Positions 48,352 through 56,760 of a stretch of DNA of 64,000 bases are shown here, piece after piece. The notes beneath the pieces are model-generated. The model did no database searches. It saw only the letters and a list, made by a program, of their open reading frames with translations, and had not been told where the DNA came from. Position 1 is the stretch's first letter; the number at the start of each line of letters is the position of its first letter. Source of the stretch: Candidatus Cloacimonadales bacterium (GTDB taxonomy: Bacteria > Cloacimonadota > Cloacimonadia > Cloacimonadales > TCS61); assembly GCA_030656075.1 (NCBI GenBank), contig JAUSOT010000047.1, forward strand, positions 10 through 64,009, written 5' to 3'. A program made the position numbers and the translations under genes.

Positions 48352-48612
48352 CAACCCCCTCGCTCCCCCTATTGAGGGGGAAGAAAACTATCATTACATA
48401 CATCTCGTTCCAATGCTCCAGCGTTGGAATGCTGCATCTCCGCTCCGGCGGACTTTAAATTAAAACTTTGCCGCATTTCATTCTCCCAACCCCCTCGATC
48501 CCCCTTGACAGGGGGAAGTAAACGATCATTACTTACATCTCGTTCCAATGCTCCGGCGTTGGAATGCTGCATCTCCGCTCCGGCGGACGTTAAATCCAAA
48601 CTTTGGCACATC
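48352..48612. repeat. tandem duplication (period ~135 nt) of a three-hairpin composite unit
   Basis: Unit 1 starts at 48352 and unit 2 at 48487. Each contains CAACCCCCTCG.TCCCCCT...AGGGGGAAG, CGTTCCAATGCTCC.GCGTTGGAATG and CTCCGCTCCGGCGGAC. The units are roughly 90% identical by eye. Confidence 0.8.
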
Positions 48613-48653
48613 TCCTCCAAGAAATCTTTGAAAGAAGATGTGGCAAAGTGCAT

Positions 48654-49871
48654 TTACTCATTTCGAATGATCTTGATCGGATCGATCTTCACTGTGCGCC
48701 GGGCAGGATGAAGCGTTGTCAGGAAACTGATGATGATGGCAACCAATGGTCCCAAAATGAAATCTGTCGTGCGCATTTCCACCGGCAGCCATTGCAGCGG
48801 AAAACCGGGAACCGGGATCAGGATAAAATGCCATTTCAATTGAGCGTAAAGCAGTCCCGAAGCCAGAACCAGCGCGATCAAAGCACCCATCACTCCGATG
48901 ATCACACCGATGTTCAGAAAAATTTTTATAATATCTTTTTCGGAAGCTCCCAAAGCTTTCAGTACTCCGATTTCAGTTTTTTTTTCCGCCACCAGTTTGA
49001 TGAAATTTCCGGTCATGTTGAAGGAAGCGATGATGATCATCAACGCCAACACCAGGAACATGATGACTTTCTCCATCTTGATGGCATTGAACAGATTGGC
49101 ATCAAACACGCTCCAATCTTCCACCAGAAATTCCGACCCTAACAATTCCTGGATTTTACGAGCATATTTTTTCGAGTTTTCGGAATTGACCGACTTAATT
49201 TCGATCTGGCTGACTTCGTTTTGGTAGCCGAGAAAATACTGAGCATTCTGCAGTGAAATGTAGGTGTAAACCTGGTCGTATTCCGGCATACCGGAGACAA
49301 AAATTCCCACCACCTTCAACTTTTTGCTTTTGGGCAGCAGACCAAATGGCGTCGGCTCCGTGCCAAGCGGCGACATCAACTGAACATATTCGCCCACCGT
49401 GGCATTGATCGTGAGGGAAAGATCGAGACCGATGATGATGCCGTCATTTTGCAGGCTTTCGACGGTGGGAACTCCCACTACCATTTTTTGGACGAGACCG
49501 GTGATGCGTGTCTGAGAATCAAAATCGATGCCAAAACATAAGTTAGAACCAAGATTGTTGCCTTTTTGGATCATCAATTCCATTTCACACACCGGCGCTG
49601 CGGCAACCACTTCCGGTAATTCCGTTATCTGCTTTGTAATTTCATTATAATCGGAGATTGGATTATATTCTTTTTGATGAACTTTAATCTCAGCTTTGGA
49701 ACCCACCACCCTATTTCTCATATCACTGTCGAAGCCGTTCATCACCGAAGAAACGACCAACAGTGAAAAAACTCCGATGATGATGCCGCCCATGGATAGC
49801 AGGTTGGAGAAAGTGAAAAATATCTTCTTCCTGCCTTTCAGATATTTGAGTGCGAGTTTTAAGTGGAACAT
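48654..49871 (-). CDS. LolC/LolE-like lipoprotein-releasing ABC transporter permease (MacB-FtsX family)
   Basis: 405 aa with MFHLKLALKYLKGRKK, a periplasmic domain, and a C-terminal FtsX TM bundle ending PARRTVKIDPIKIIRNE. Confidence 0.8.
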   Translation of the reverse strand: MFHLKLALKYLKGRKKIFFTFSNLLSMGGIIIGVFSLLVVSSVMNGFDSDMRNRVVGSKAEIKVHQKEYNPISDYNEITKQITELPEVVAAAPVCEMELMIQKGNNLGSNLCFGIDFDSQTRITGLVQKMVVGVPTVESLQNDGIIIGLDLSLTINATVGEYVQLMSPLGTEPTPFGLLPKSKKLKVVGIFVSGMPEYDQVYTYISLQNAQYFLGYQNEVSQIEIKSVNSENSKKYARKIQELLGSEFLVEDWSVFDANLFNAIKMEKVIMFLVLALMIIIASFNMTGNFIKLVAEKKTEIGVLKALGASEKDIIKIFLNIGVIIGVMGALIALVLASGLLYAQLKWHFILIPVPGFPLQWLPVEMRTTDFILGPLVAIIISFLTTLHPARRTVKIDPIKIIRNE

Positions 49872-49899
49872 TATTTATCCAAGCCTATCTTCATTTTAT
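49838..49899. repeat. direct repeat copy A (lolC first 34 nt plus 28 nt upstream)
   Basis: 62 of 62 nt identical to 51023-51084. Similarity continues with mismatches to about 49917 / 51102. Confidence 0.9.
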
Positions 49900-51012
49900 G
49901 AAATTCCCTTTTTCATCATTTTCCTCTATTAATTCTTTCAGTTGTTGTTTATCTGGCAGGATTGTTTTGTATTTGCTGGCAAAGATTTGCTCATTATCTT
50001 CTGGCAAGGTCATTCTCACCAAAGCGTTTTCTTTCTGTTTACAAAGAATAATTCCTATGGTTTTATTTTCATCAGCCATTTTTATTTCTCGGTCATAGTA
50101 GTTTACATACATTTGCATTTGACCCAAATCCTGGTGCCTCAATTCACCAATTTTTAAATCGATGATTACAAAACATCTTAATAGCCGATTGTAAAAAACC
50201 AGATCAATAAAGAAATGCTTCTCTTTAAAAGTCATCCGTTTCTGTCGGGCTACAAAAGTGAAACCTTTTCCTAATTCCAATAGAAAATGTTCCAATTTAT
50301 CGATCAATCTGCTTTCTAAATCTGATTCGGAATATTTTGCATGCTCCGGCAATCCTAAAAATTCCAAAATATACGGTTCTTTAACTGCATCGGCTGGTTT
50401 TGAAATGATTTGCCCTTTTTGTGAGAGTTCTTTGATAGCCTCTTTATCTTTACTCAATACTAAACGTTCGTACAGAGCAGAATCAAATTGTCTCTTCAGT
50501 TCTCTTAAACTCCAATTATTTGTATGAGCTTCAATTTCATAAAATTTTCTCTCTTCGAAATTCTCTATGCGCATTAAGAAAACGTAATGTGACCAACTCA
50601 AAATAAATTCCGCAGACGATGTCTGCGTTTTTCCTACTTCAAATTCCCCAGACACTGTCTGCTGTTTTTGTAATTCCCTCGACAGCATTGAAGATTTCTT
50701 CTTTTCTAATTCCGCAGACATTGTCTGCGGAATTGAGTAAGTTAGATAAAAGAACTTCATTTGCTCAAGATTACGCACAGAAAATCCCCTGCCAAATTCT
50801 TTTATAAGTTTTTCAGACAGGTCTTCTAATATTTGCTCCCCATATTCTGCACGTTTTTCTCCGCCCTGTAAATGCTCTACGATTATTCGTCCAATCTCAA
50901 AATAGGTACAAACCATTGTGGAATTGATGGAACGAATAACCTGGGAGCGAGCGGTTATTATCAGTTCCTTTACTTCGTGAAAAATGTTTTTTTCTATGTT
51001 GTTCGAATTCAT
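49891..51012 (-). CDS. DUF1016 / YhcG-family PD-(D/E)XK nuclease (copy 1)
   Basis: 373 aa. N-terminal domain ITARSQVIRSINSTMVCTYFEIGRIIVE...GFSVRNLEQMKFFY, and a C-terminal nuclease core FIDLVFYNRLLRCFVIIDLKIGELRHQDLGQMQMYVNYY (D..(D/E)xK). Confidence 0.8.
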   Translation of the reverse strand: MNSNNIEKNIFHEVKELIITARSQVIRSINSTMVCTYFEIGRIIVEHLQGGEKRAEYGEQILEDLSEKLIKEFGRGFSVRNLEQMKFFYLTYSIPQTMSAELEKKKSSMLSRELQKQQTVSGEFEVGKTQTSSAEFILSWSHYVFLMRIENFEERKFYEIEAHTNNWSLRELKRQFDSALYERLVLSKDKEAIKELSQKGQIISKPADAVKEPYILEFLGLPEHAKYSESDLESRLIDKLEHFLLELGKGFTFVARQKRMTFKEKHFFIDLVFYNRLLRCFVIIDLKIGELRHQDLGQMQMYVNYYDREIKMADENKTIGIILCKQKENALVRMTLPEDNEQIFASKYKTILPDKQQLKELIEENDEKGNFIK

Positions 51013-51022
51013 TTGTTTCCTC

Positions 51023-51084
51023 TCAGATATTTGAGTGCGAGTTTTAAGTGGAACATTATTTATCCAAGCCTATCTTCATTTTAT
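51023..51084. repeat. direct repeat copy B (pseudo-start of lolC fused to the DUF1016 gene)
   Basis: Identical to 49838-49899. It encodes a 15-codon leader MFHLKLALKYLRGNK whose TGA overlaps the DUF1016 ATG. Confidence 0.9.
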
Positions 51085-51250
51085 AAAACTTCCTTTTTCA
51101 TTTTTAAGCCAACTTATTGATTCCTTTTTTTTTAACAATCAATTCTAGCAATGTTCAAGCACGCTGCGGAATCAGCATGATTCCACCAAAGCGAACCAAC
51201 TAACGTTTGAATCGGCACGATTCAAACAAAACAGACGGATAACTCTACCG

Positions 51251-53170
51251 GTAGAGTAGAAACAGGTTAACCAGTAGGAAAACCTGTAACCCTCATCAAA
51301 CCGTACGTGCGGTTTTCCCGCATACGGCTTTCCAACAAGATTCGTCTCAGGCATTCACAAGTGTCAAACAAAAGTATATCTCGCCGGATCTATCAATCCA
51401 TAATGACTGACTAAATAGGCGAATGCACTACGGCGATAGAGCTTACACTTTCGCTGACTTTTACGCTGAAAAAATCGATAAAAACTTTCATCAAGATACC
51501 AATGAAGTTTACCTTTCGCTGTACTGGGATAACTAATTCCTCTTATCGAGAAATAGTTCAACCAACCCCGGATGATTGGATTTAGTGTTCGGGTAATTGC
51601 TTCCGAACTGAAATGGCGACAATACCGAAAAACTTTCCTAATCTTCTCTCGAATTTTAAGCTCGCTCTTCTTGCTTGGAACAACATTCCAATACTTACCA
51701 TTATTGCCATAAATCCCTCTATCATATCGGAAAGTAAATCCCAGAAAATCAAATGATTCTTTTCTGGCGTCAATTTGTTTTGTCTTATCTGTATTTACAT
51801 CTAACTCCATCTTCTCCAACATCTTGTTAAGATATTCCAACGATGCTTCAGGTAGTTTTCTACCCATCAGAATGAAATCATCTGCATAGCGGATCATTGA
51901 AATTCCATACTTGTAAAAGTAACCATCTTTTCGTGCCACGGCTTTATCCAATAAATTCAGATAAATATTCGCCAGCAGTGGAGATATTACACCTCCCTGT
52001 GGAACACCTTTTCTACTTTTATGAAGTTTGTTATCTTCAAAAACTGTACATTTGAGCCATTTCTTGATGAGATTTATAACCCGCTTGTCTGAGATTCGTT
52101 TCTCAAGCAAAATGAGTAATTTATCATGTGGGATATTATCGAAAAATCCCGATAGATCGGCATCATACACATTAGTATTCCCACGCTTAAGATTAGATTT
52201 GATTTCAGTGATTGCTCCTTTGGCTGAACGCTTGGGTCGAAATCCGTATGAACAGTCTTCAAAATCGGCTTCGAATACAGGCTCTATAACCATTTTACAA
52301 CTCATCTGAACTATTCTGTCTCTTATTGTTGGAATCCCGAGAGGCCGCATTTTTCCATTTGCTTTAGGTACGTAAACTCTCAATATCGGCTGAGGTTTGT
52401 AGGTCTCTGCTTTTAGCTCTTCTGCCAGTTCCCTGAGATAGCTTTCGACTCCGTATTCCTCAATTTCTAAAAAGGTTACTTTGTCGTATCCAGGTACTCC
52501 TTGGTTGGCTTTTACACGTTTCCATGCTTCGAATAAGAAATGTTGGAGGGATATTTTGTCATGCATTACATAAAAACAAAACTCCTTCTCTTGCTTGGCT
52601 TTGAGATATATTTTACGTTGAAATGATCGCACTTTTCCGGTTCCGCTTAACGCTTTACCAGGTTTATCTTTTAGATTTTCATCAATCACAAAATGCTCCT
52701 TTTCTTGTAAAATCTCTTGAAGCAATGCCCCTTCGCTCCTTCTGAGTTATGTTGTCTCAAATATCAACACTACTATGGGCATCTCCGACTGCCTATATGC
52801 CTGATTTTCATTTCGGATTTCCTTATAGAAAACCATTTAAGATTGCCATTCTTTAGCATAAAGGCTCTCTCACGTTTATGATGTTATCATTCTTAAACAC
52901 GCCATCAGTTACAACTCCGGCAGCCCTCAACAGTGCTCTTTTCCGTTGCTTCCTGTTGAGTTGCAGACTTCGTCTCACCTGAGGAACTCGTCGGCTGCAA
53001 ATTACATTTAACGAAGCTAATCTGTTCGCTTTCGCTACGGCTTATTTAATGCTAAAAAGAGCTTTGACCGATCCGTTACCGGATCAAGCCATCTTCCTTG
53101 CTTCCATCTGAACGGAAAATTAGATGGGTTGGATTTGAACCAACTGACAATATCACACTTCGTGACGCAC
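51251..53170 (-). mobile_element. bacterial group II intron (about 1.9 kb, RT/maturase ORF in domain IV)
   Basis: The 5' end is GTGCG (complement of 53166-53170). Domain V is AGCCGTATGCGGGAAAACCGCACGTACGGTTT (complement of about 51299-51330). Domain VI and the 3' end read ...CTACTCTAC, with the 3' boundary good to about +/-10 nt. The intron sequence CAGGTG (complement of 52976-52981) is complementary to the last 6 nt of the 5' exon, CACCTG. Confidence 0.8.
51364..52725 (-). CDS. group II intron reverse transcriptase/maturase (no endonuclease domain)
   Basis: 453 aa. Has RT motifs incl. RPLGIPTIRDRIVQ and YADDFILMG, and a maturase X region RGWLNYF. It ends without HNH/En motifs. Confidence 0.9.
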   Translation of the reverse strand: MLQEILQEKEHFVIDENLKDKPGKALSGTGKVRSFQRKIYLKAKQEKEFCFYVMHDKISLQHFLFEAWKRVKANQGVPGYDKVTFLEIEEYGVESYLRELAEELKAETYKPQPILRVYVPKANGKMRPLGIPTIRDRIVQMSCKMVIEPVFEADFEDCSYGFRPKRSAKGAITEIKSNLKRGNTNVYDADLSGFFDNIPHDKLLILLEKRISDKRVINLIKKWLKCTVFEDNKLHKSRKGVPQGGVISPLLANIYLNLLDKAVARKDGYFYKYGISMIRYADDFILMGRKLPEASLEYLNKMLEKMELDVNTDKTKQIDARKESFDFLGFTFRYDRGIYGNNGKYWNVVPSKKSELKIREKIRKVFRYCRHFSSEAITRTLNPIIRGWLNYFSIRGISYPSTAKGKLHWYLDESFYRFFQRKSQRKCKLYRRSAFAYLVSHYGLIDPARYTFV

Positions 53171-53193
53171 CAGGTGCGATGTTAGACGACCGT
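53171..53193. repeat. left terminal inverted repeat of the ORF328 cassette
   Basis: GATGTTAGACGACCGT (53178-53193) is the perfect reverse complement of 54191-54206. The outer CAGGTGC matches GCACCACCTG at 54214-54223. Confidence 0.8.
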
Positions 53194-54168
53194 TTTTCGT
53201 TTATACTCATTAATACCTGTATTAAACAAATCTTGAGCAGAAATATTTTTATTCACTGAAAAAAGCAAATTATAAATCTCAAAAAAACTGTTTTCATCAT
53301 AATTTCTCATTTTGTAATTATGCTCTAAACCAGCTTCTCTTAGGACAAAACGATTATAAAAACTACAAAGATTCTCGTAGGCTTTGTAAATAATGTTAAA
53401 ATCATTTGAAGAAATATCCGACTCATTATTTAACATTTTATTTTTAAACAAATCAATTAAAATGTGAGTTCCCGTTTCGTGACAAATAAATTGGATAAAC
53501 CACTCAGTGTCTGAATTATAATAAAACCAATTCTTTTCGTAACCGAGAGAATTTGCTGACGGTCCGTTTTTTATTCCAGTACTCAAAACAATATCGTAAT
53601 AAGCGTATTTAAAATTAAGTTTTGTTACATCTTCCCACAGCTTTATAAAATTAAATTCTGATAACCGATTGCTGAGAGTATTAATTTTTTCTCGAATTTT
53701 TTCTTTTTCTATTGGCCAAACATCATTTAGAAAATTATCAAAATTTTTTATGTAAATTTCAGAGATTCGCTTAATTTCATTGTTAAAACTGTATAGGTGT
53801 GAATCAAAATTTGGTTTAAACCAGTCTTTAAGATTAGAAATGTAAGATTGATATTTATTTTTAAAATTATTGAAAGAATGCATCTCAATAGATTTGTTTA
53901 GTAGATTAAAGTATGTTTCGATTTCATTTATATTTTTAAGATTAATATAATTTGGGAAAAAGATAATTAATTCTGTTAGCTTACTCATTTGGCCGTCTCC
54001 CCATTTAAGAAGATTCTTGTTCTCTTGTAGGAATTTTAAATCTATCGAATCAATACTATCAAAATAAGTCTTTGAATAATCACTATCGAATCCGATTTTT
54101 GCTACACTCAAAAGATGAGCATTATAATTTGAAAATATCTCGTATTTTAATCGAATTATCTTATTCAT
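53182..54168 (-). CDS. hypothetical protein (very AT-rich; contains CHETGTH, an HExxxH-type motif)
   Basis: 328-aa uninterrupted ORF, Asn/Lys/Phe-rich. No family recognised and the metalloprotease idea rests on one motif only. Confidence 0.5.
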   Translation of the reverse strand: MNKIIRLKYEIFSNYNAHLLSVAKIGFDSDYSKTYFDSIDSIDLKFLQENKNLLKWGDGQMSKLTELIIFFPNYINLKNINEIETYFNLLNKSIEMHSFNNFKNKYQSYISNLKDWFKPNFDSHLYSFNNEIKRISEIYIKNFDNFLNDVWPIEKEKIREKINTLSNRLSEFNFIKLWEDVTKLNFKYAYYDIVLSTGIKNGPSANSLGYEKNWFYYNSDTEWFIQFICHETGTHILIDLFKNKMLNNESDISSNDFNIIYKAYENLCSFYNRFVLREAGLEHNYKMRNYDENSFFEIYNLLFSVNKNISAQDLFNTGINEYKRKTVV

Positions 54169-54190
54169 TATAGATATCCATATTCTGCTT

Positions 54191-54223
54191 ACGGTCGTCT
54201 AACATCCATACTTGCACCACCTG
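54191..54223. repeat. right terminal inverted repeat of the ORF328 cassette
   Basis: ACGGTCGTCTAACATC, a 7-nt insertion, then GCACCACCTG. Confidence 0.8.
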
Positions 54224-54292
54224 TTTTGTTGCACCTAACTAACCTATAGTTAGGGTAATTTGTTGTACATTACCTTTTCCCTATTTACTTCT

Positions 54293-54369
54293 TCGCCAGA
54301 TATTTCTCGATTACTTTTTCATAAAAGCCCGGCAATTTATTTGTGATGAAATTAGTAATGTTTTTCAGA
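54293..54369 (-). pseudogene. relic 3' end of a GT4 glycosyltransferase gene
   Basis: My translation is ...NFITNKLPGFYEKVIEKYLAKK*. Compare the C-terminus of the intact GT4 gene at 55510: ...QIIAEKILDFYQRVIEKYRVG*. Confidence 0.45.
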
Positions 54370-55395
54370 TCAACCCTCATTTATGATGATTTCTTCAATT
54401 TGATGAATTAATTGTTCTTCTTTAGGTAATATGTAAGTGTATCTTGAAGCAAAAACTTTATTTGATAAACTGCCAAGAATATATTCGGCTGCGATTTCAT
54501 CTTTTTCTGCACAAATAATAATTCCTATTGGTGGATTGTCATTCTCTTCATTTACTTCGGTTTTGTAATAATTCAAATATGTATTCATTTGTCCACCGTC
54601 AGTTATTTGTAATTTTCTTGTTTTCAATTCGATTAAAACATAAGATTTCAGGATTTTATTATAGAACACCATATCTACAAAATAATGTGTGTTGTTTATT
54701 GTAATTATTTGCTGTGAGCCGAGAAACATAAATCCTTTCCCCAACTCAAGCAGGAAATCTTCTATATGTCTTATCAATTTTCTTTCCAAGTCTTTCTCTA
54801 AAATCGGTTTGTTTTCAGGAATACCCAAGAATTCAAAAACATACGGATCTTTTGTTATATCATCCGGTTCTCTGATTATATTACCTTCTTGCGCTAATTT
54901 AATGATTTTATCTTTATTATTCTTTCCTTGTGATAATAATAGTCTTTCAAATAAGGAACTGTCTATTTGTCGTTTAAGTTCTCGAACAGACCAATTTGCG
55001 TTTTGGCATTCTTTTTCGTAAAATGCTCTTTTATTAGAATCCGAGATCATTAATAATTCACAGTATTTTGACCAACTAAGATGTCCAGACAGCGTCTGGA
55101 CACGTGAATAATGTAAATACAACTTTCTCATATTAAACAGGTTAGCTCGCGAAAATCCTTTACCCAATCTTTCTGTTAGAATTTTAGAAATCTGTAAAAT
55201 TATTTTTCGACTTGTCTGATCATCGACATTAGAATTTGTTTCTTTTTCTATAATAACTTTTCCAATATTCCAATAAGTAACAAGTAGTTCAGTATTTATA
55301 TTGGCTTTAATTCTGTTGCGTGAATTCTTAACCAGATTATGGATTTCTTCTATTAACTCAGTTACATCTAATCCTGCTATCGTGTTAATTTCCAT
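54370..55395 (-). CDS. DUF1016 / YhcG-family PD-(D/E)XK nuclease (copy 2)
   Basis: 341 aa. Has GFSRANLFNMRKLY, LSWSKY, WSVRELKRQIDSSLFERL and the nuclease core FVDMVFYNKILKSYVLIELKTRKL...GQMNTYLNYY. Confidence 0.8.
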   Translation of the reverse strand: MEINTIAGLDVTELIEEIHNLVKNSRNRIKANINTELLVTYWNIGKVIIEKETNSNVDDQTSRKIILQISKILTERLGKGFSRANLFNMRKLYLHYSRVQTLSGHLSWSKYCELLMISDSNKRAFYEKECQNANWSVRELKRQIDSSLFERLLLSQGKNNKDKIIKLAQEGNIIREPDDITKDPYVFEFLGIPENKPILEKDLERKLIRHIEDFLLELGKGFMFLGSQQIITINNTHYFVDMVFYNKILKSYVLIELKTRKLQITDGGQMNTYLNYYKTEVNEENDNPPIGIIICAEKDEIAAEYILGSLSNKVFASRYTYILPKEEQLIHQIEEIIINEG

Positions 55396-55509
55396 TTATG
55401 TCTCCAGATAAATTTCTTCTAAAAAAACCAGCCTCTATTTACATAAAATCGCCGCATAATAACATTTCCAGGTTGAAAATCATCCAACTCTTCAACCAGT
55501 TATTTCTGT

Positions 55510-56760
55510 TTATCCCACCCGATACTTCTCTATCACTCTTTGATAAAAATCCAATATTTTCTCCGCGATGATCTGGCAGCAATAATTTCCGCACACTTCC
55601 TCATAAGCGTTGTGGATCAGCTTCACGCGCAGATCGGGATGATCTTTCAATAAATAGTACTTTGCTGCTAAATCTTCCAATGAATCATTTTGATAGAAGA
55701 GCCCGTTGTGTTTTTCAGTGATCAAATTCTGTAGTCCGCCCACTTTATGAGCAATCACCGGCAGACGGCTGGCCCAGGCTTCCAGGGCAACAATGCCGAA
55801 CGGTTCCTTTATAGACGGCAAGATGAAGAAATCTGCGGCGTGATAGGCTTTCACCAGTTCGGGGTCATCAGCATTCAAACCCGGAATGATCGTAATCCTG
55901 TCTTCCATGTGCAACTCCTGGATTCGATGCTGGATTTTTTGATAATACGATTCGGAAGCGATCTGCCCGATCAGCAGCAGATGAGTGCTTTTGTGTTTTT
56001 GGTTCAGAAGATTCACCAGTTCAACCAGTTTTAATTGATTTTTCTGCGGATCGATTCTACCGGCACACAAGATGATATCCGCATCGTTATTGATATTGTA
56101 TCGTTCTCGAAAATGCCGGCTCGGTCCGATTTTAAATTTATCTATATCCACTCCGTTGGGAATGTACTCCACGATTTTATCGGGATATCGCTGCTGCAAT
56201 ATCCGGCACTCATCCTTTCCCAGGCAGAGAATGCCGTCCGCATCCTGCAAAGCATTCCTGGTTTTCAGCAGGCTGTCGAGCAGTTTTCCATAATGCAGAG
56301 TTCCTTCCAGGAGCATTTCCATCTTCTCATTGCCGGTTTCGGGAGTTTTGTTTTGGGCTTCAAACAGCGAGATCACATAAGGAATTTTCTGCTTTCGGGC
56401 TGCCAGCCGCACCAGGTTCGAAAGCCTCTGAGGAGCGTGGCTGTGCAGGATGTCAACTCCCGGTGACCTTTGCAGATAACGATACATTTGCCAGGAATAG
56501 GGATTGCCGTCTTTCTGGTCGAAAGCTGCTTTGGCTTCATCCGAAAGATTGAAATAGGGATAGAAATATTCAAAGCGTTTGATGGGAACATCTTCGATAA
56601 ATTCGCCAGCCATTTCAGATTGAACTTTCGTTGACAGAATCTCAGTTTGAAAACCTTTCTTCCGGAAGCTGCGGCTCATATTCCAGACGAGACTCTCACT
56701 TGCACCCAAATCATCAAAAGCAAGTTTTCCAATTATTTGAATGGAGCGTATATTATTCAT
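55510..56760 (-). CDS. glycosyltransferase family 4
   Basis: 416 aa. The C-terminal half has FILPSIKEPFGIVALEAWASRLPVIAHKVGGLQNLI, an EX7E-type GT-B motif. Confidence 0.8.
   Translation of the reverse strand: MNNIRSIQIIGKLAFDDLGASESLVWNMSRSFRKKGFQTEILSTKVQSEMAGEFIEDVPIKRFEYFYPYFNLSDEAKAAFDQKDGNPYSWQMYRYLQRSPGVDILHSHAPQRLSNLVRLAARKQKIPYVISLFEAQNKTPETGNEKMEMLLEGTLHYGKLLDSLLKTRNALQDADGILCLGKDECRILQQRYPDKIVEYIPNGVDIDKFKIGPSRHFRERYNINNDADIILCAGRIDPQKNQLKLVELVNLLNQKHKSTHLLLIGQIASESYYQKIQHRIQELHMEDRITIIPGLNADDPELVKAYHAADFFILPSIKEPFGIVALEAWASRLPVIAHKVGGLQNLITEKHNGLFYQNDSLEDLAAKYYLLKDHPDLRVKLIHNAYEEVCGNYCCQIIAEKILDFYQRVIEKYRVG

Follow-up and report, generated by a model that had tools for sequence, protein, structure and literature searches.

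How does a single nuclease gene come to lie between two copies of the end of its neighbour? The question is raised by a 64,000-nucleotide stretch of DNA (the window) from a metagenome-assembled genome of a Candidatus Cloacimonadales bacterium. Between a gene for a GT4 glycosyltransferase (GT4) and a gene for an FtsX/MacB-type permease, the window contains two genes of the DUF1016/YhcG nuclease family, DUF1016-1 and DUF1016-2; all features from GT4 to the permease are located on the minus strand. DUF1016-2 is preceded by the intact 3′ end of GT4 and followed by a relic of a GT4 end. In the window, the functional GT4 end is foreign and the native end has been displaced, and a discrete unit containing the nuclease gene recurs at unrelated sites, where target segments are duplicated and an intact target copy is always preserved. 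The best explanation is probably that DUF1016/YhcG genes insert at the ends of host genes, flanked by target repeats of 36-297 nucleotides (nt), with one intact copy of the target kept. According to the same explanation, and with the same confidence, DUF1016-2 forms a discrete cassette with a single gene, about 1.1 kb in length, which is made up of a leader, a PD-(D/E)XK nuclease open reading frame (ORF) and, at the 3′ end, a stub some 35 nt long.

The two ends of the glycosyltransferase gene

The window was compared with a sister lineage (contigs L002-L007 and L009) and with a JGI contig, L008, as an outgroup. The flanking genes of the sister lineage have 87-90% protein identity to those of the window, and its GT4 ends with EKYQGKK before the stop. 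The gene order given in a preliminary description of the window (GT4, a 114-nt spacer, DUF1016-2 and a GT4-tail-like frame) was confirmed by the ORF coordinates, and an independent assembly of run SRR13727525 has the same gene order as the window. The parts of the region, including those assigned by a hidden Markov model (HMM), are as follows:

56760-55510, minus: GT4 glycosyltransferase gene, whole (Pfam Glycos_transf_1 and Glyco_transf_4)
55607-56760, minus: native part of GT4, codons 1-384, with 93/93 nt identical to L002 over 55699-55607
55510-55606, minus: present GT4 tail, last 32 codons and stop, ending with YEEVCGNYCCQIIAEKILDFYQRVIEKYRVG; identity to L002 drops at 55607/55606
55509-55396, minus: spacer of 114 nt from the GT4 stop to DUF1016-2
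55456-55509, minus: post-stop spacer, origin unassigned, with a hairpin GGTTGAA-N13-TTCAACC (55497-55471)
54346-55455, minus: DUF1016-2 unit, comprising the 5′ leader, the ORF and the 3′ stub (54380-54346)
55395-54370, minus: DUF1016-2 ORF
54380-54285, minus: short frame of 31 residues after DUF1016-2, MRVDLKNITNFITNKLPGFYEKVIEKYLAKK and stop
54309-54347, minus: 5′ part of the relic GT4 tail, 13 codons, ITNKLPGFYEKVI, GT4-like in protein according to the HMM alignment
54285-54308, minus: 3′ part of the relic GT4 tail, EKYLAKK and stop, the native old gene end
54202-54284, minus: native 3′ flank of the old GT4 end, as judged from homology to the sister lineage

The similarity of the frame behind DUF1016-2 to GT4 C-termini, noticed in the preliminary description, is significant. 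In a comparison of the last 35 residues of GT4 with all six frames of the 64-kb window, the relic frame was the top non-self match (score 49, next 39). An HMM of the tail, built from 54 orthologous GT4 C-termini with the local gene left out, was searched against 2833 six-frame fragments of the window; it matched the relic at E = 2.5e-5, with the runner-up at E = 0.52. Positions 41-59 of the 59 in the model align to relic residues 12-30 (I12-K30), and the stop is in register, two codons on. The tails of the orthologues follow the pattern YSWxxITDKLxxFYxKVIxKY, and the relic is closer to several of them than to the local GT4.

The extent of the relic had to be revised. The peptide NFITNKLPGFYEKVIEKYLAKK is present in the sequence, as described earlier, but it spans 54353-54285, and the end previously placed at 54293 drops the final KK and the stop. 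Likewise, the relic is real but shorter than the 25 residues described: only 19 codons and the stop (54347-54285) derive from GT4 according to the HMM alignment. The first 11 residues of MRVDLKNITNFITNKLPGFYEKVIEKYLAKK, MRVDLKNITNF, five of which fall within those 25, belong to the DUF1016 unit and mark its conserved right end. The relic is counted as 19 codons because 54380-54346 is homologous (86-89% nt identity) to the sequence after DUF1016 in the unrelated loci L096, L100, L098 and L089. The earlier statement that the two tails agree at the protein level only, with diverged DNA, holds in part: 25/31 nt are identical between 55548-55518 and 54326-54296, a match that 0/2000 shuffles equalled in score, and in the 13 codons before EKY the relic and the present tail share 25/39 nt (64%).

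The sharp change along the working gene indicates which of the two ends arrived. Identity to the sister lineage is complete over 55699-55607 (93/93 nt) and then amounts to 52/73 and 19/24 nt (71-79%) up to the stop; the GC content is 0.39 in the present GT4 tail vs 0.46 in the rest of the gene. Because identity falls so sharply at 55607/55606, the present end of GT4 is taken to be foreign, its last 32 codons apparently having been imported with DUF1016-2. None of the loci compared contains a match to the spacer behind the present GT4 stop. A clean duplication running past the stop was considered and rejected, the present spacer and the relic flank not being significantly similar (p = 0.6).

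The relic itself seems to be composite. The last eight codons of its 3′ part, including the stop, are identical to the GT4 end of L002 in 21/24 nt (hand count), and within the 83 nt past the relic stop (54284-54202) 74/79 aligned nt (94%) are identical to L002 11255-11334. The match of end and flank holds for contigs L002-L007 and L009 of the sister lineage, which have one tail and no DUF1016; because of it, the 3′ part of the relic, together with the flank, is the ancestral, native end of GT4. The homology of the flanks ends at GGATGT (54202), where the cargo differs. The native flank is present in a single copy in the window and once in each of L001-L007; it has no significant fold (z = -0.44) and no Rfam match. 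The 5′ part, ITNKLPGFYEKVI, has about 51% nt identity to L002 (20/39, hand count), 64% to the present tail and 72% to L183, a distant low-GC orthologue (28/39, hand count), and is a third kind of tail, neither sister-type nor present-type. The locus of P0013, a protein with a tail like the 5′ part, was rejected as a donor, there being no DUF1016 gene downstream.

The preliminary description had proposed that the incoming element brought its own GT4 end. This was borne out, since the present end is foreign and the 3′ part of the relic and the flank are sister-type and native. The simplest reading would be one contiguous foreign block with one ORF, about 1.3 kb long, from 55606 to about 54309.

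An empty form of the site is found in L008, where GT4, 48 nt, the permease, DUF7033 and RNR genes follow each other, with one tail and one permease start; the permease of L008 is 89% identical to that of the window and GT4 62%. Since L008 has 48 nt there, the 5.6 kb between GT4 and the permease in the window is accessory. Orthologous loci free of DUF1016, both of the L002 type and L008, were checked for the presence of both tails and contain one each, and the proposed replacement of the gene end thus stands. The sister lineage has another defence island at the same site (L002 11461-19368), comprising a PLDc_2-SNF2 helicase, an ORF6N protein and an Eco57I-type methylase/restriction protein with DUF4391. 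Because of this different island, the GT4-permease site is regarded as an integration hotspot.

The DUF1016 unit and repeats at other loci

The DUF1016/YhcG family is defined by PF17761 and PF06250 (COG4804), and both domains are found in both window proteins above the Pfam thresholds. DUF1016-2 matches YhcG_C at 2e-55 (187.4 bits) and DUF1016_N at 6.5e-39 (133.6 bits); the domains of DUF1016-1 score 132.2 and 196.6 bits. The PADLOC model PDC-S02 matches DUF1016-2 at 1.6e-122 and DUF1016-1 at 1.2e-140. Both proteins are full-length and contain the D...(E/D)-L-K nuclease motif. The insert encodes a predicted PD-(D/E)XK nuclease-fold protein, not a demonstrated restriction enzyme, and a methyltransferase is absent. 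The GC content of DUF1016-2 is 0.30. Pfam detected no recombinase in any large ORF of the GT4-permease interval, and the window gave no tblastn match to the L089 recombinase.

Relatives of the DUF1016-2 protein with 77-91% identity are encoded in other contexts, and their DNA homology is limited to the ORF and short margins. The spans of the window matched are:

L096: 55426-54346, 86% nt identity
L098: 55426-54361, 89% nt identity
L089: 55406-54383, 84% nt identity

The unit is present at 84-90% nt identity in four contexts, the window and three others, with coinciding ends. Less sharply defined than the right end, its left end is placed between 55455 and 55426, with 30-100 nt between it and the ATG. 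After the DUF1016 stop, a stub of the form ATG..AAAAA..AATTTCAT (MRVDLKNITNF in the window) is common to the window, L098, L089 and L096/L100; its end coincides within 3-8 nt across these loci, and the sequence beyond is locus-specific. In L096 and L100, the stub continues into a 386-residue ORF, and a tree of the ORFs places both within the stub-bearing clade. The stub was also considered as the truncated 5′ end of this 386-residue gene, joined by random illegitimate recombination; this was rejected, since L098 and L089 share the stub end and the tree nests L096 and L100. The stub is here treated as the right end of the DUF1016-2 unit. In the native flank of the window, GTTAGTTAG seems to resemble the left ends of the units in L098 and L089, an observation for which nothing is claimed.

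Repeats of neighbouring sequence bound DUF1016 genes at several of the loci. In L098, the unit follows the 3′ end of an FAD-binding oxidoreductase gene, and a second copy of the last 38 codons of this gene lies beyond the stub; the repeat is at least 116 nt long, running to the contig end, and is 96.5% identical, its four mismatches all being at synonymous third positions. In L089, repeats of 71 nt (89% identical) bound the unit exactly. The tail of an Eco57I-type gene is duplicated in L103 (89 nt, with five synonymous and three conservative codon differences), and the repeat of L120 and L122 is the 5′ end of serS. In the window, DUF1016-1 (copy 1, with DUF1016-2 as copy 2) is enclosed in the same manner at the other side of the accessory region, where the 5′ end of the permease gene and 45 nt upstream of it are duplicated (51019-51101 vs 49834-49916):

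51019-51101, minus: upstream copy of the 83-nt repeat, containing a decapitated LolE-like start, MFHLKLALKYLRGNK and stop
49891-51012, minus: DUF1016-1 gene (Pfam), whose last eight codons and stop lie within the downstream repeat copy
49834-49916, minus: downstream copy of the 83-nt repeat, containing the real permease start (49871)
49871-48654, minus: FtsX/MacB-type permease gene (Pfam)

Two independent events with a repeat-gene-repeat layout had been suggested for the window, and this agrees with the present data: the copy 1 repeat is 83 nt long and 95% identical, and the insertions are regarded as independent because the two DUF1016 proteins are only about 37% identical. The ends of the DUF1016-1 unit are not definable by comparison, as its closest homologues are only about 69% identical.

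The association was then examined family-wide at 80 loci, one genome per species, together with the earlier loci. A direct repeat of at least 40 bits was sought between the 500 nt upstream of the gene and the segment that begins 60 nt before the gene ends and reaches 500 nt past it, with the following results:

DUF1016 genes with full flanks: repeat in 13/65
Windows shifted by 2.5-3.5 kb (control): repeat in 1/211
Other ORFs of 250-450 residues at the same loci (control): repeat in 1/99

Long flanking repeats are enriched around DUF1016 genes generally (Fisher p = 2.6e-5, odds ratio 24.5, against neighbouring ORFs). Each repeat is specific to its locus, with lengths ranging over 36-297 nt and identities over 78-100%; the copies are 1.1-1.9 kb apart, leaving room for one gene. 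They consist of the ends of neighbouring genes or of terminator-like hairpins, and no sequence is common to the repeats of different loci. The L143 repeat resembles a tRNA T-arm, an assignment that was dropped because ARAGORN predicts no tRNA at this place. A C-terminal tyrosine-recombinase fragment of about 49 residues was observed just upstream of DUF1016 in four loci from different phyla (L093 5701-5847, L094 3-128, L095 2-133 and L175 3736-3888).

Proposed route of entry, rival explanations and known systems

The DUF1016-2 cassette would have entered the 3′ end of GT4 within the single foreign block of about 1.3 kb (55606 to ~54309). On the left, the cassette would have been accompanied by a GT4 tail and the spacer behind its stop, both originating from another allele or host, and on the right by a short GT4-tail fragment. 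The left join would have been made by recombination inside GT4 at 55607/55606 and the right join inside the resident tail around GAGAAATAT (54308-54300). GT4 would be kept intact with a new end, and the resident end would be left downstream as a non-functional relic (8 native codons, stop and native flank). Two routes may be envisaged, a single Campbell-type crossover near GAGAAATAT or the conversion of 55606-54309 from a donor already having this architecture; by both routes, the GT4 end in RVG and the spacer would have arrived with the unit. As a cycle, the unit would travel with one copy of its previous target and recombine with the homologous gene of the next genome. We infer that the flanking target copies pass between host alleles through homologous or homeologous recombination, for which the nuclease may provide the breaks. 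The differences between coding repeat copies are biased to synonymous ones (synonymous to nonsynonymous, 4:0 in L098 and 5:3 in L103), which suggests that the copies diverged as functional alleles in different genomes and not by decay after a fresh duplication.

Several points weigh against this explanation. The copies of the GT4 tail are only 64% identical over 39 nt, with unrelated post-stop flanks; copy 2 is not a clean target duplication and needs at least two source alleles. The 5′ part of the relic matches no sequenced allele, and no donor locus with GT4 followed by DUF1016 was found, including among 80 loci from a metagenome scan with GT4 alignment; these contain one close relative only, L009, which is identical to the L002 type. 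The GT4 gene (56760-55510) is, moreover, a mosaic when compared with L002 10001-11254: codons 0-60 and 120-200 have 58-64% nt identity, as distant as the outgroup L008, and codons 60-120 and 200-385 have 87-96% (90-96% for codons 200-385). With the sister lineage about 10% diverged and GT4 a mosaic, the divergence past 55607 could be due in part to unrelated recombination. Some DUF1016 relatives adjoin tyrosine-recombinase genes or fragments (in L089 a full gene, downstream), and the fragments could be either further 'carried gene ends' or a hint of mobilisation by a recombinase.

A less likely explanation, which still deserves serious consideration, regards the DUF1016 genes as passive cargo. 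The GT4-permease hotspot would turn over by homologous recombination in the flanking core genes, with occasional illegitimate joins facilitated by homology after DNA uptake; DUF1016 would be an often exchanged, selectable defence gene, and the repeats a by-product of host recombination and not of the nuclease. This is consistent with the different defence island of the sister lineage at the same site, with the presence there in the window of the orphan gene ORF328 and a group II intron, with the mosaic structure of GT4 along its whole length, with the junction microhomology of 4-8 nt (TCATC or ATTAT) and with the cataloguing of DUF1016 as a candidate defence gene (PDC-S02). However, four unrelated contexts agree to within a few nt on where the unit ends on the right, which random illegitimate joins would not produce, and neighbouring genes, other defence genes included, are without such repeats (1/99).

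It is improbable that the locus is the remnant of an integrase island. A tyrosine-recombinase island containing DUF1016 would then have integrated site-specifically into the 3′ end of GT4, supplying a replacement tail in the manner of tRNA islands, and deletions would subsequently have removed the integrase and most of the cargo. In favour of such an island, a tyrosine recombinase of 279 residues is encoded directly after the repeat-bounded DUF1016 unit of L089, recombinase C-terminal fragments lie just upstream of DUF1016 in L093, L094, L095 and L175, and DUF1016 is enriched beside recombinase-driven invertible loci (PMC9881135). Against this, a recombinase is absent from the block and from the GT4-permease interval (Pfam; tblastn of the window with the L089 recombinase), the repeats of 36-297 nt are locus-specific and without a shared core, and the same short unit ends are found at loci without any recombinase; the recombinase fragments themselves have the appearance of additional 'carried gene ends'. 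That the relic resembles GT4 by chance, or is a small ORF of separate origin, might be suggested by its shortness (19 residues), its K/E/I-rich composition and its location in AT-rich DNA, but this is practically eliminated by the profile match (E = 2.5e-5 over the whole six-frame window), by the agreement with the GT4 end (21/24 nt) and flank (74/79 nt) of the sister lineage and by the stop in register with the family.

Among known systems, the closest to the explanation by insertion at gene ends would be the 'insertion with long target duplication' of restriction-type genes, which Nobusato et al. (2000) reportedly described for restriction-modification (R-M) genes. According to Furuta, Abe and Kobayashi 2010 (PMC2853133), the class covers R-M types I-IV, solitary mcrA included; the start or stop of the target gene frequently lies within the repeats, so that the gene is left intact, and the mechanism is unexplained, double-strand breaks having been proposed. 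The same authors delimit the class by inserts of <20 kb with restriction-type nuclease genes and without transposase, integrase or phage genes, by repeats of >30 bp and by an empty site with a single copy. The block in the window is about 1.3 kb with one ORF. The repeats of copy 1 (83 nt, 95%) and L098 (at least 116 nt, 96.5%) exceed 30 bp; in copy 2, a tail of 57 nt is duplicated in diverged form, with a core of 25/31 nt, 25/39 before it and unrelated flanks. Single-copy empty sites are present in L002-L007 and L009 (one tail and flank) and in L008. Copy 1 and L098 would fit the class, as would copy 2 except for its heterologous copies. The likeness lies in a small insert with a nuclease gene and no transposase or integrase, and in variable direct repeats of >30 bp that are single-copy at the empty site, with the neighbouring gene intact. 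In contrast to the class, DUF1016/YhcG is not an established restriction enzyme, the tails of copy 2 come from different alleles (64%, unrelated post-stop flanks) and are not near-identical, and the DUF1016 unit has a defined 3′ stub common to its insertions.

Integrase islands enter the 3′ ends of tRNA or protein genes and restore them with an element-borne copy. Here, too, the incoming DNA supplies an intact gene end, and what is left of the native end has been displaced to the opposite side of the insert. Unlike such islands, the insert is a single 1-kb gene without a recombinase and has no identical att core; the two junctions share at best a segment of 31 nt (81% identical) and no long exact core. 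The parallel with tRNA islands drawn earlier is an analogy only, the block being without a recombinase. Free-standing homing endonuclease genes move by 'intronless homing' with co-conversion of flanking markers and no target duplication. Similar features of the present locus are the lone nuclease gene beside or within conserved genes and the donor flank co-transferred with a sharp tract boundary at 55607; unlike in homing, target segments are duplicated in both window copies and in 13/65 family loci, and DUF1016 is not a recognised homing-endonuclease family. Defence-island hotspots and 'minimal mobile elements' are exchanged via recombination in the core genes on either side. The present site resembles them in being a single intergenic location, bordered by conserved genes, with different defence cargo in related genomes, but the repeat-gene-repeat layout and the coinciding unit ends at unrelated sites are not predicted there.

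Conserved neighbours are lacking in the DUF1016/YhcG family (PMC1189080), whose members travel on mobile elements (PMC4316617) and are located in R-M and recombinase-driven invertible loci (PMC9881135); the family is listed only as a candidate defence gene (PADLOC PDC-S02). No report of DUF1016/YhcG as a repeat-flanked cassette, or as a member of the long-target-duplication class, was found in a literature search. The family is among the commonest uncharacterised nuclease families, with at least 8000 candidates, nearly all at E<=1e-30; the best 120 matches are mostly 60-70% identical and come from several phyla, and the repeat-flanked pattern generalises across phyla. If these genes are indeed repeat-flanked single-gene cassettes, the lack of conserved neighbours would be explained, 'insertion with long target duplication' would be widened past classical R-M systems, and a compact, tractable unit (about 1.1 kb, one ORF, defined ends and an internal palindrome) would be available for work on the mechanism. 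For annotation, gene-end fragments beside DUF1016 genes would be insertion scars, and the terminal codons of a neighbouring gene may be foreign.

The internal palindrome and neighbouring features

DUF1016 genes have a palindrome in their coding sequence. In DUF1016-2 it is GTCCAGAC-GCT-GTCTGGAC (55083-55101, no strand assigned), encoding VQTLSG; the others in the window, all in DUF1016-1, are at 50606-50627, 50642-50663 and 50708-50734. All four matches to CAGAC-N1-4-GTCTG in the window (4/4) lie inside the two DUF1016 genes, with 0.06 expected by chance. The form CAGAC-N3-GTCTG is found in 53/78 DUF1016 genes (L089-L179), about 297 nt from the start and encoding Q-T-x-S. The codons of the motif are frozen: CAG is used in 59/60 (53% elsewhere in the same genes) and TCT in 58/60 (20% elsewhere), and G occupies the third position of the x codon in 59/60 vs 21% elsewhere in the same genes. 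Three pairs just outside the core covary, with 43 cells changed on both sides vs 15.9 +/- 3.4 in shuffles. Extra palindromes are located 36-39 nt upstream of the start (L127, L128 and L143) and 14-15 nt past the stop (L128 and E. coli). All this points to a DNA- or RNA-level site, a candidate for a hairpin or for dimer binding.

It is possible, but rather doubtful, that the DUF1016/YhcG nuclease is the active agent of a transposase-less one-gene mobile element. In that case, the nuclease would cut at or near gene ends or hairpins, and its gene would integrate with a long target duplication, carrying the gene end of the previous host as homology for the next integration; the conserved, covarying CAGAC-N3-GTCTG, inside the gene and sometimes just outside, would be the cis-acting or recognition site.

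Compared with its homologue P0242, DUF1016-1 has an insertion of 34 residues (50600-50740, residues ~95-130), made up of three palindrome-encoded copies of the motif (IPQTMSAEL, QQTVSGEF and TQTSSAEF). E. coli YhcG has three motif copies too, 39 nt apart. The E. coli yhcG locus (L180, K-12 3358000-3374000; L181; L182) was considered as an independent case of insertion and set aside, since it has three states and is not a clean repeat-flanked single-gene insertion. The gltD-nanQ spacer contains one 28-nt yhcG-like palindrome in the empty state (AR_0081), yhcG alone in the second state (JNEC-KY179 and many other genomes) and, in K-12, an 8.3-kb gltF-yhcA-G island between two palindromes, with yhcG at the right edge. 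The palindrome beside yhcG differs from the copy of the empty site by symmetric changes in both arms. It is not a dispersed repeat, occurring in a median of two places per genome.

The remaining features, upstream of GT4 and between the two DUF1016 genes, are:

59291-56757, minus: SpoIIE-type response regulator gene, upstream of GT4
53182-54168, minus: ORF328, orphan gene of 328 residues, 26% GC, the first gene beyond the native GT4 flank
~51251-53169, minus: group II intron (Rfam RF02005, RF02003, RF00029)
52725-51364, minus: reverse transcriptase/maturase ORF of the group II intron (Pfam RVT_1 and GIIM)

The GC content is 0.24-0.32 over 53200-55500 vs 0.40-0.48 outside. ORF328 has no match in Pfam, PADLOC, NCBIfam or plasmid tblastn; a single marginal match was found in PHROGs (phrog_2061, E = 0.0087). 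The intron begins with GTGCG, 12 nt beyond the ORF328 stop. An independent Logan contig, L001, breaks off within the intron, which suggests that the intron is a multi-copy element. Beyond the 3′ end of the intron there are two adjacent hairpins (~51235-51140), TTTGAATCG-tgc-CGATTCAAA and GGAATCA-tgc-TGATTCC, without an Rfam match. They are homologous to the first 75 nt of L096, there also just upstream of a DUF1016 gene, and compensatory changes are seen between the stems of the two loci (L096 1-75). The spacer between the permease and DUF7033 genes is 530 nt long in the window vs 98 nt in L008 and contains a tandem duplication (48352-48614) of a 128-nt unit with 88% identity and a spacing of 135 nt.

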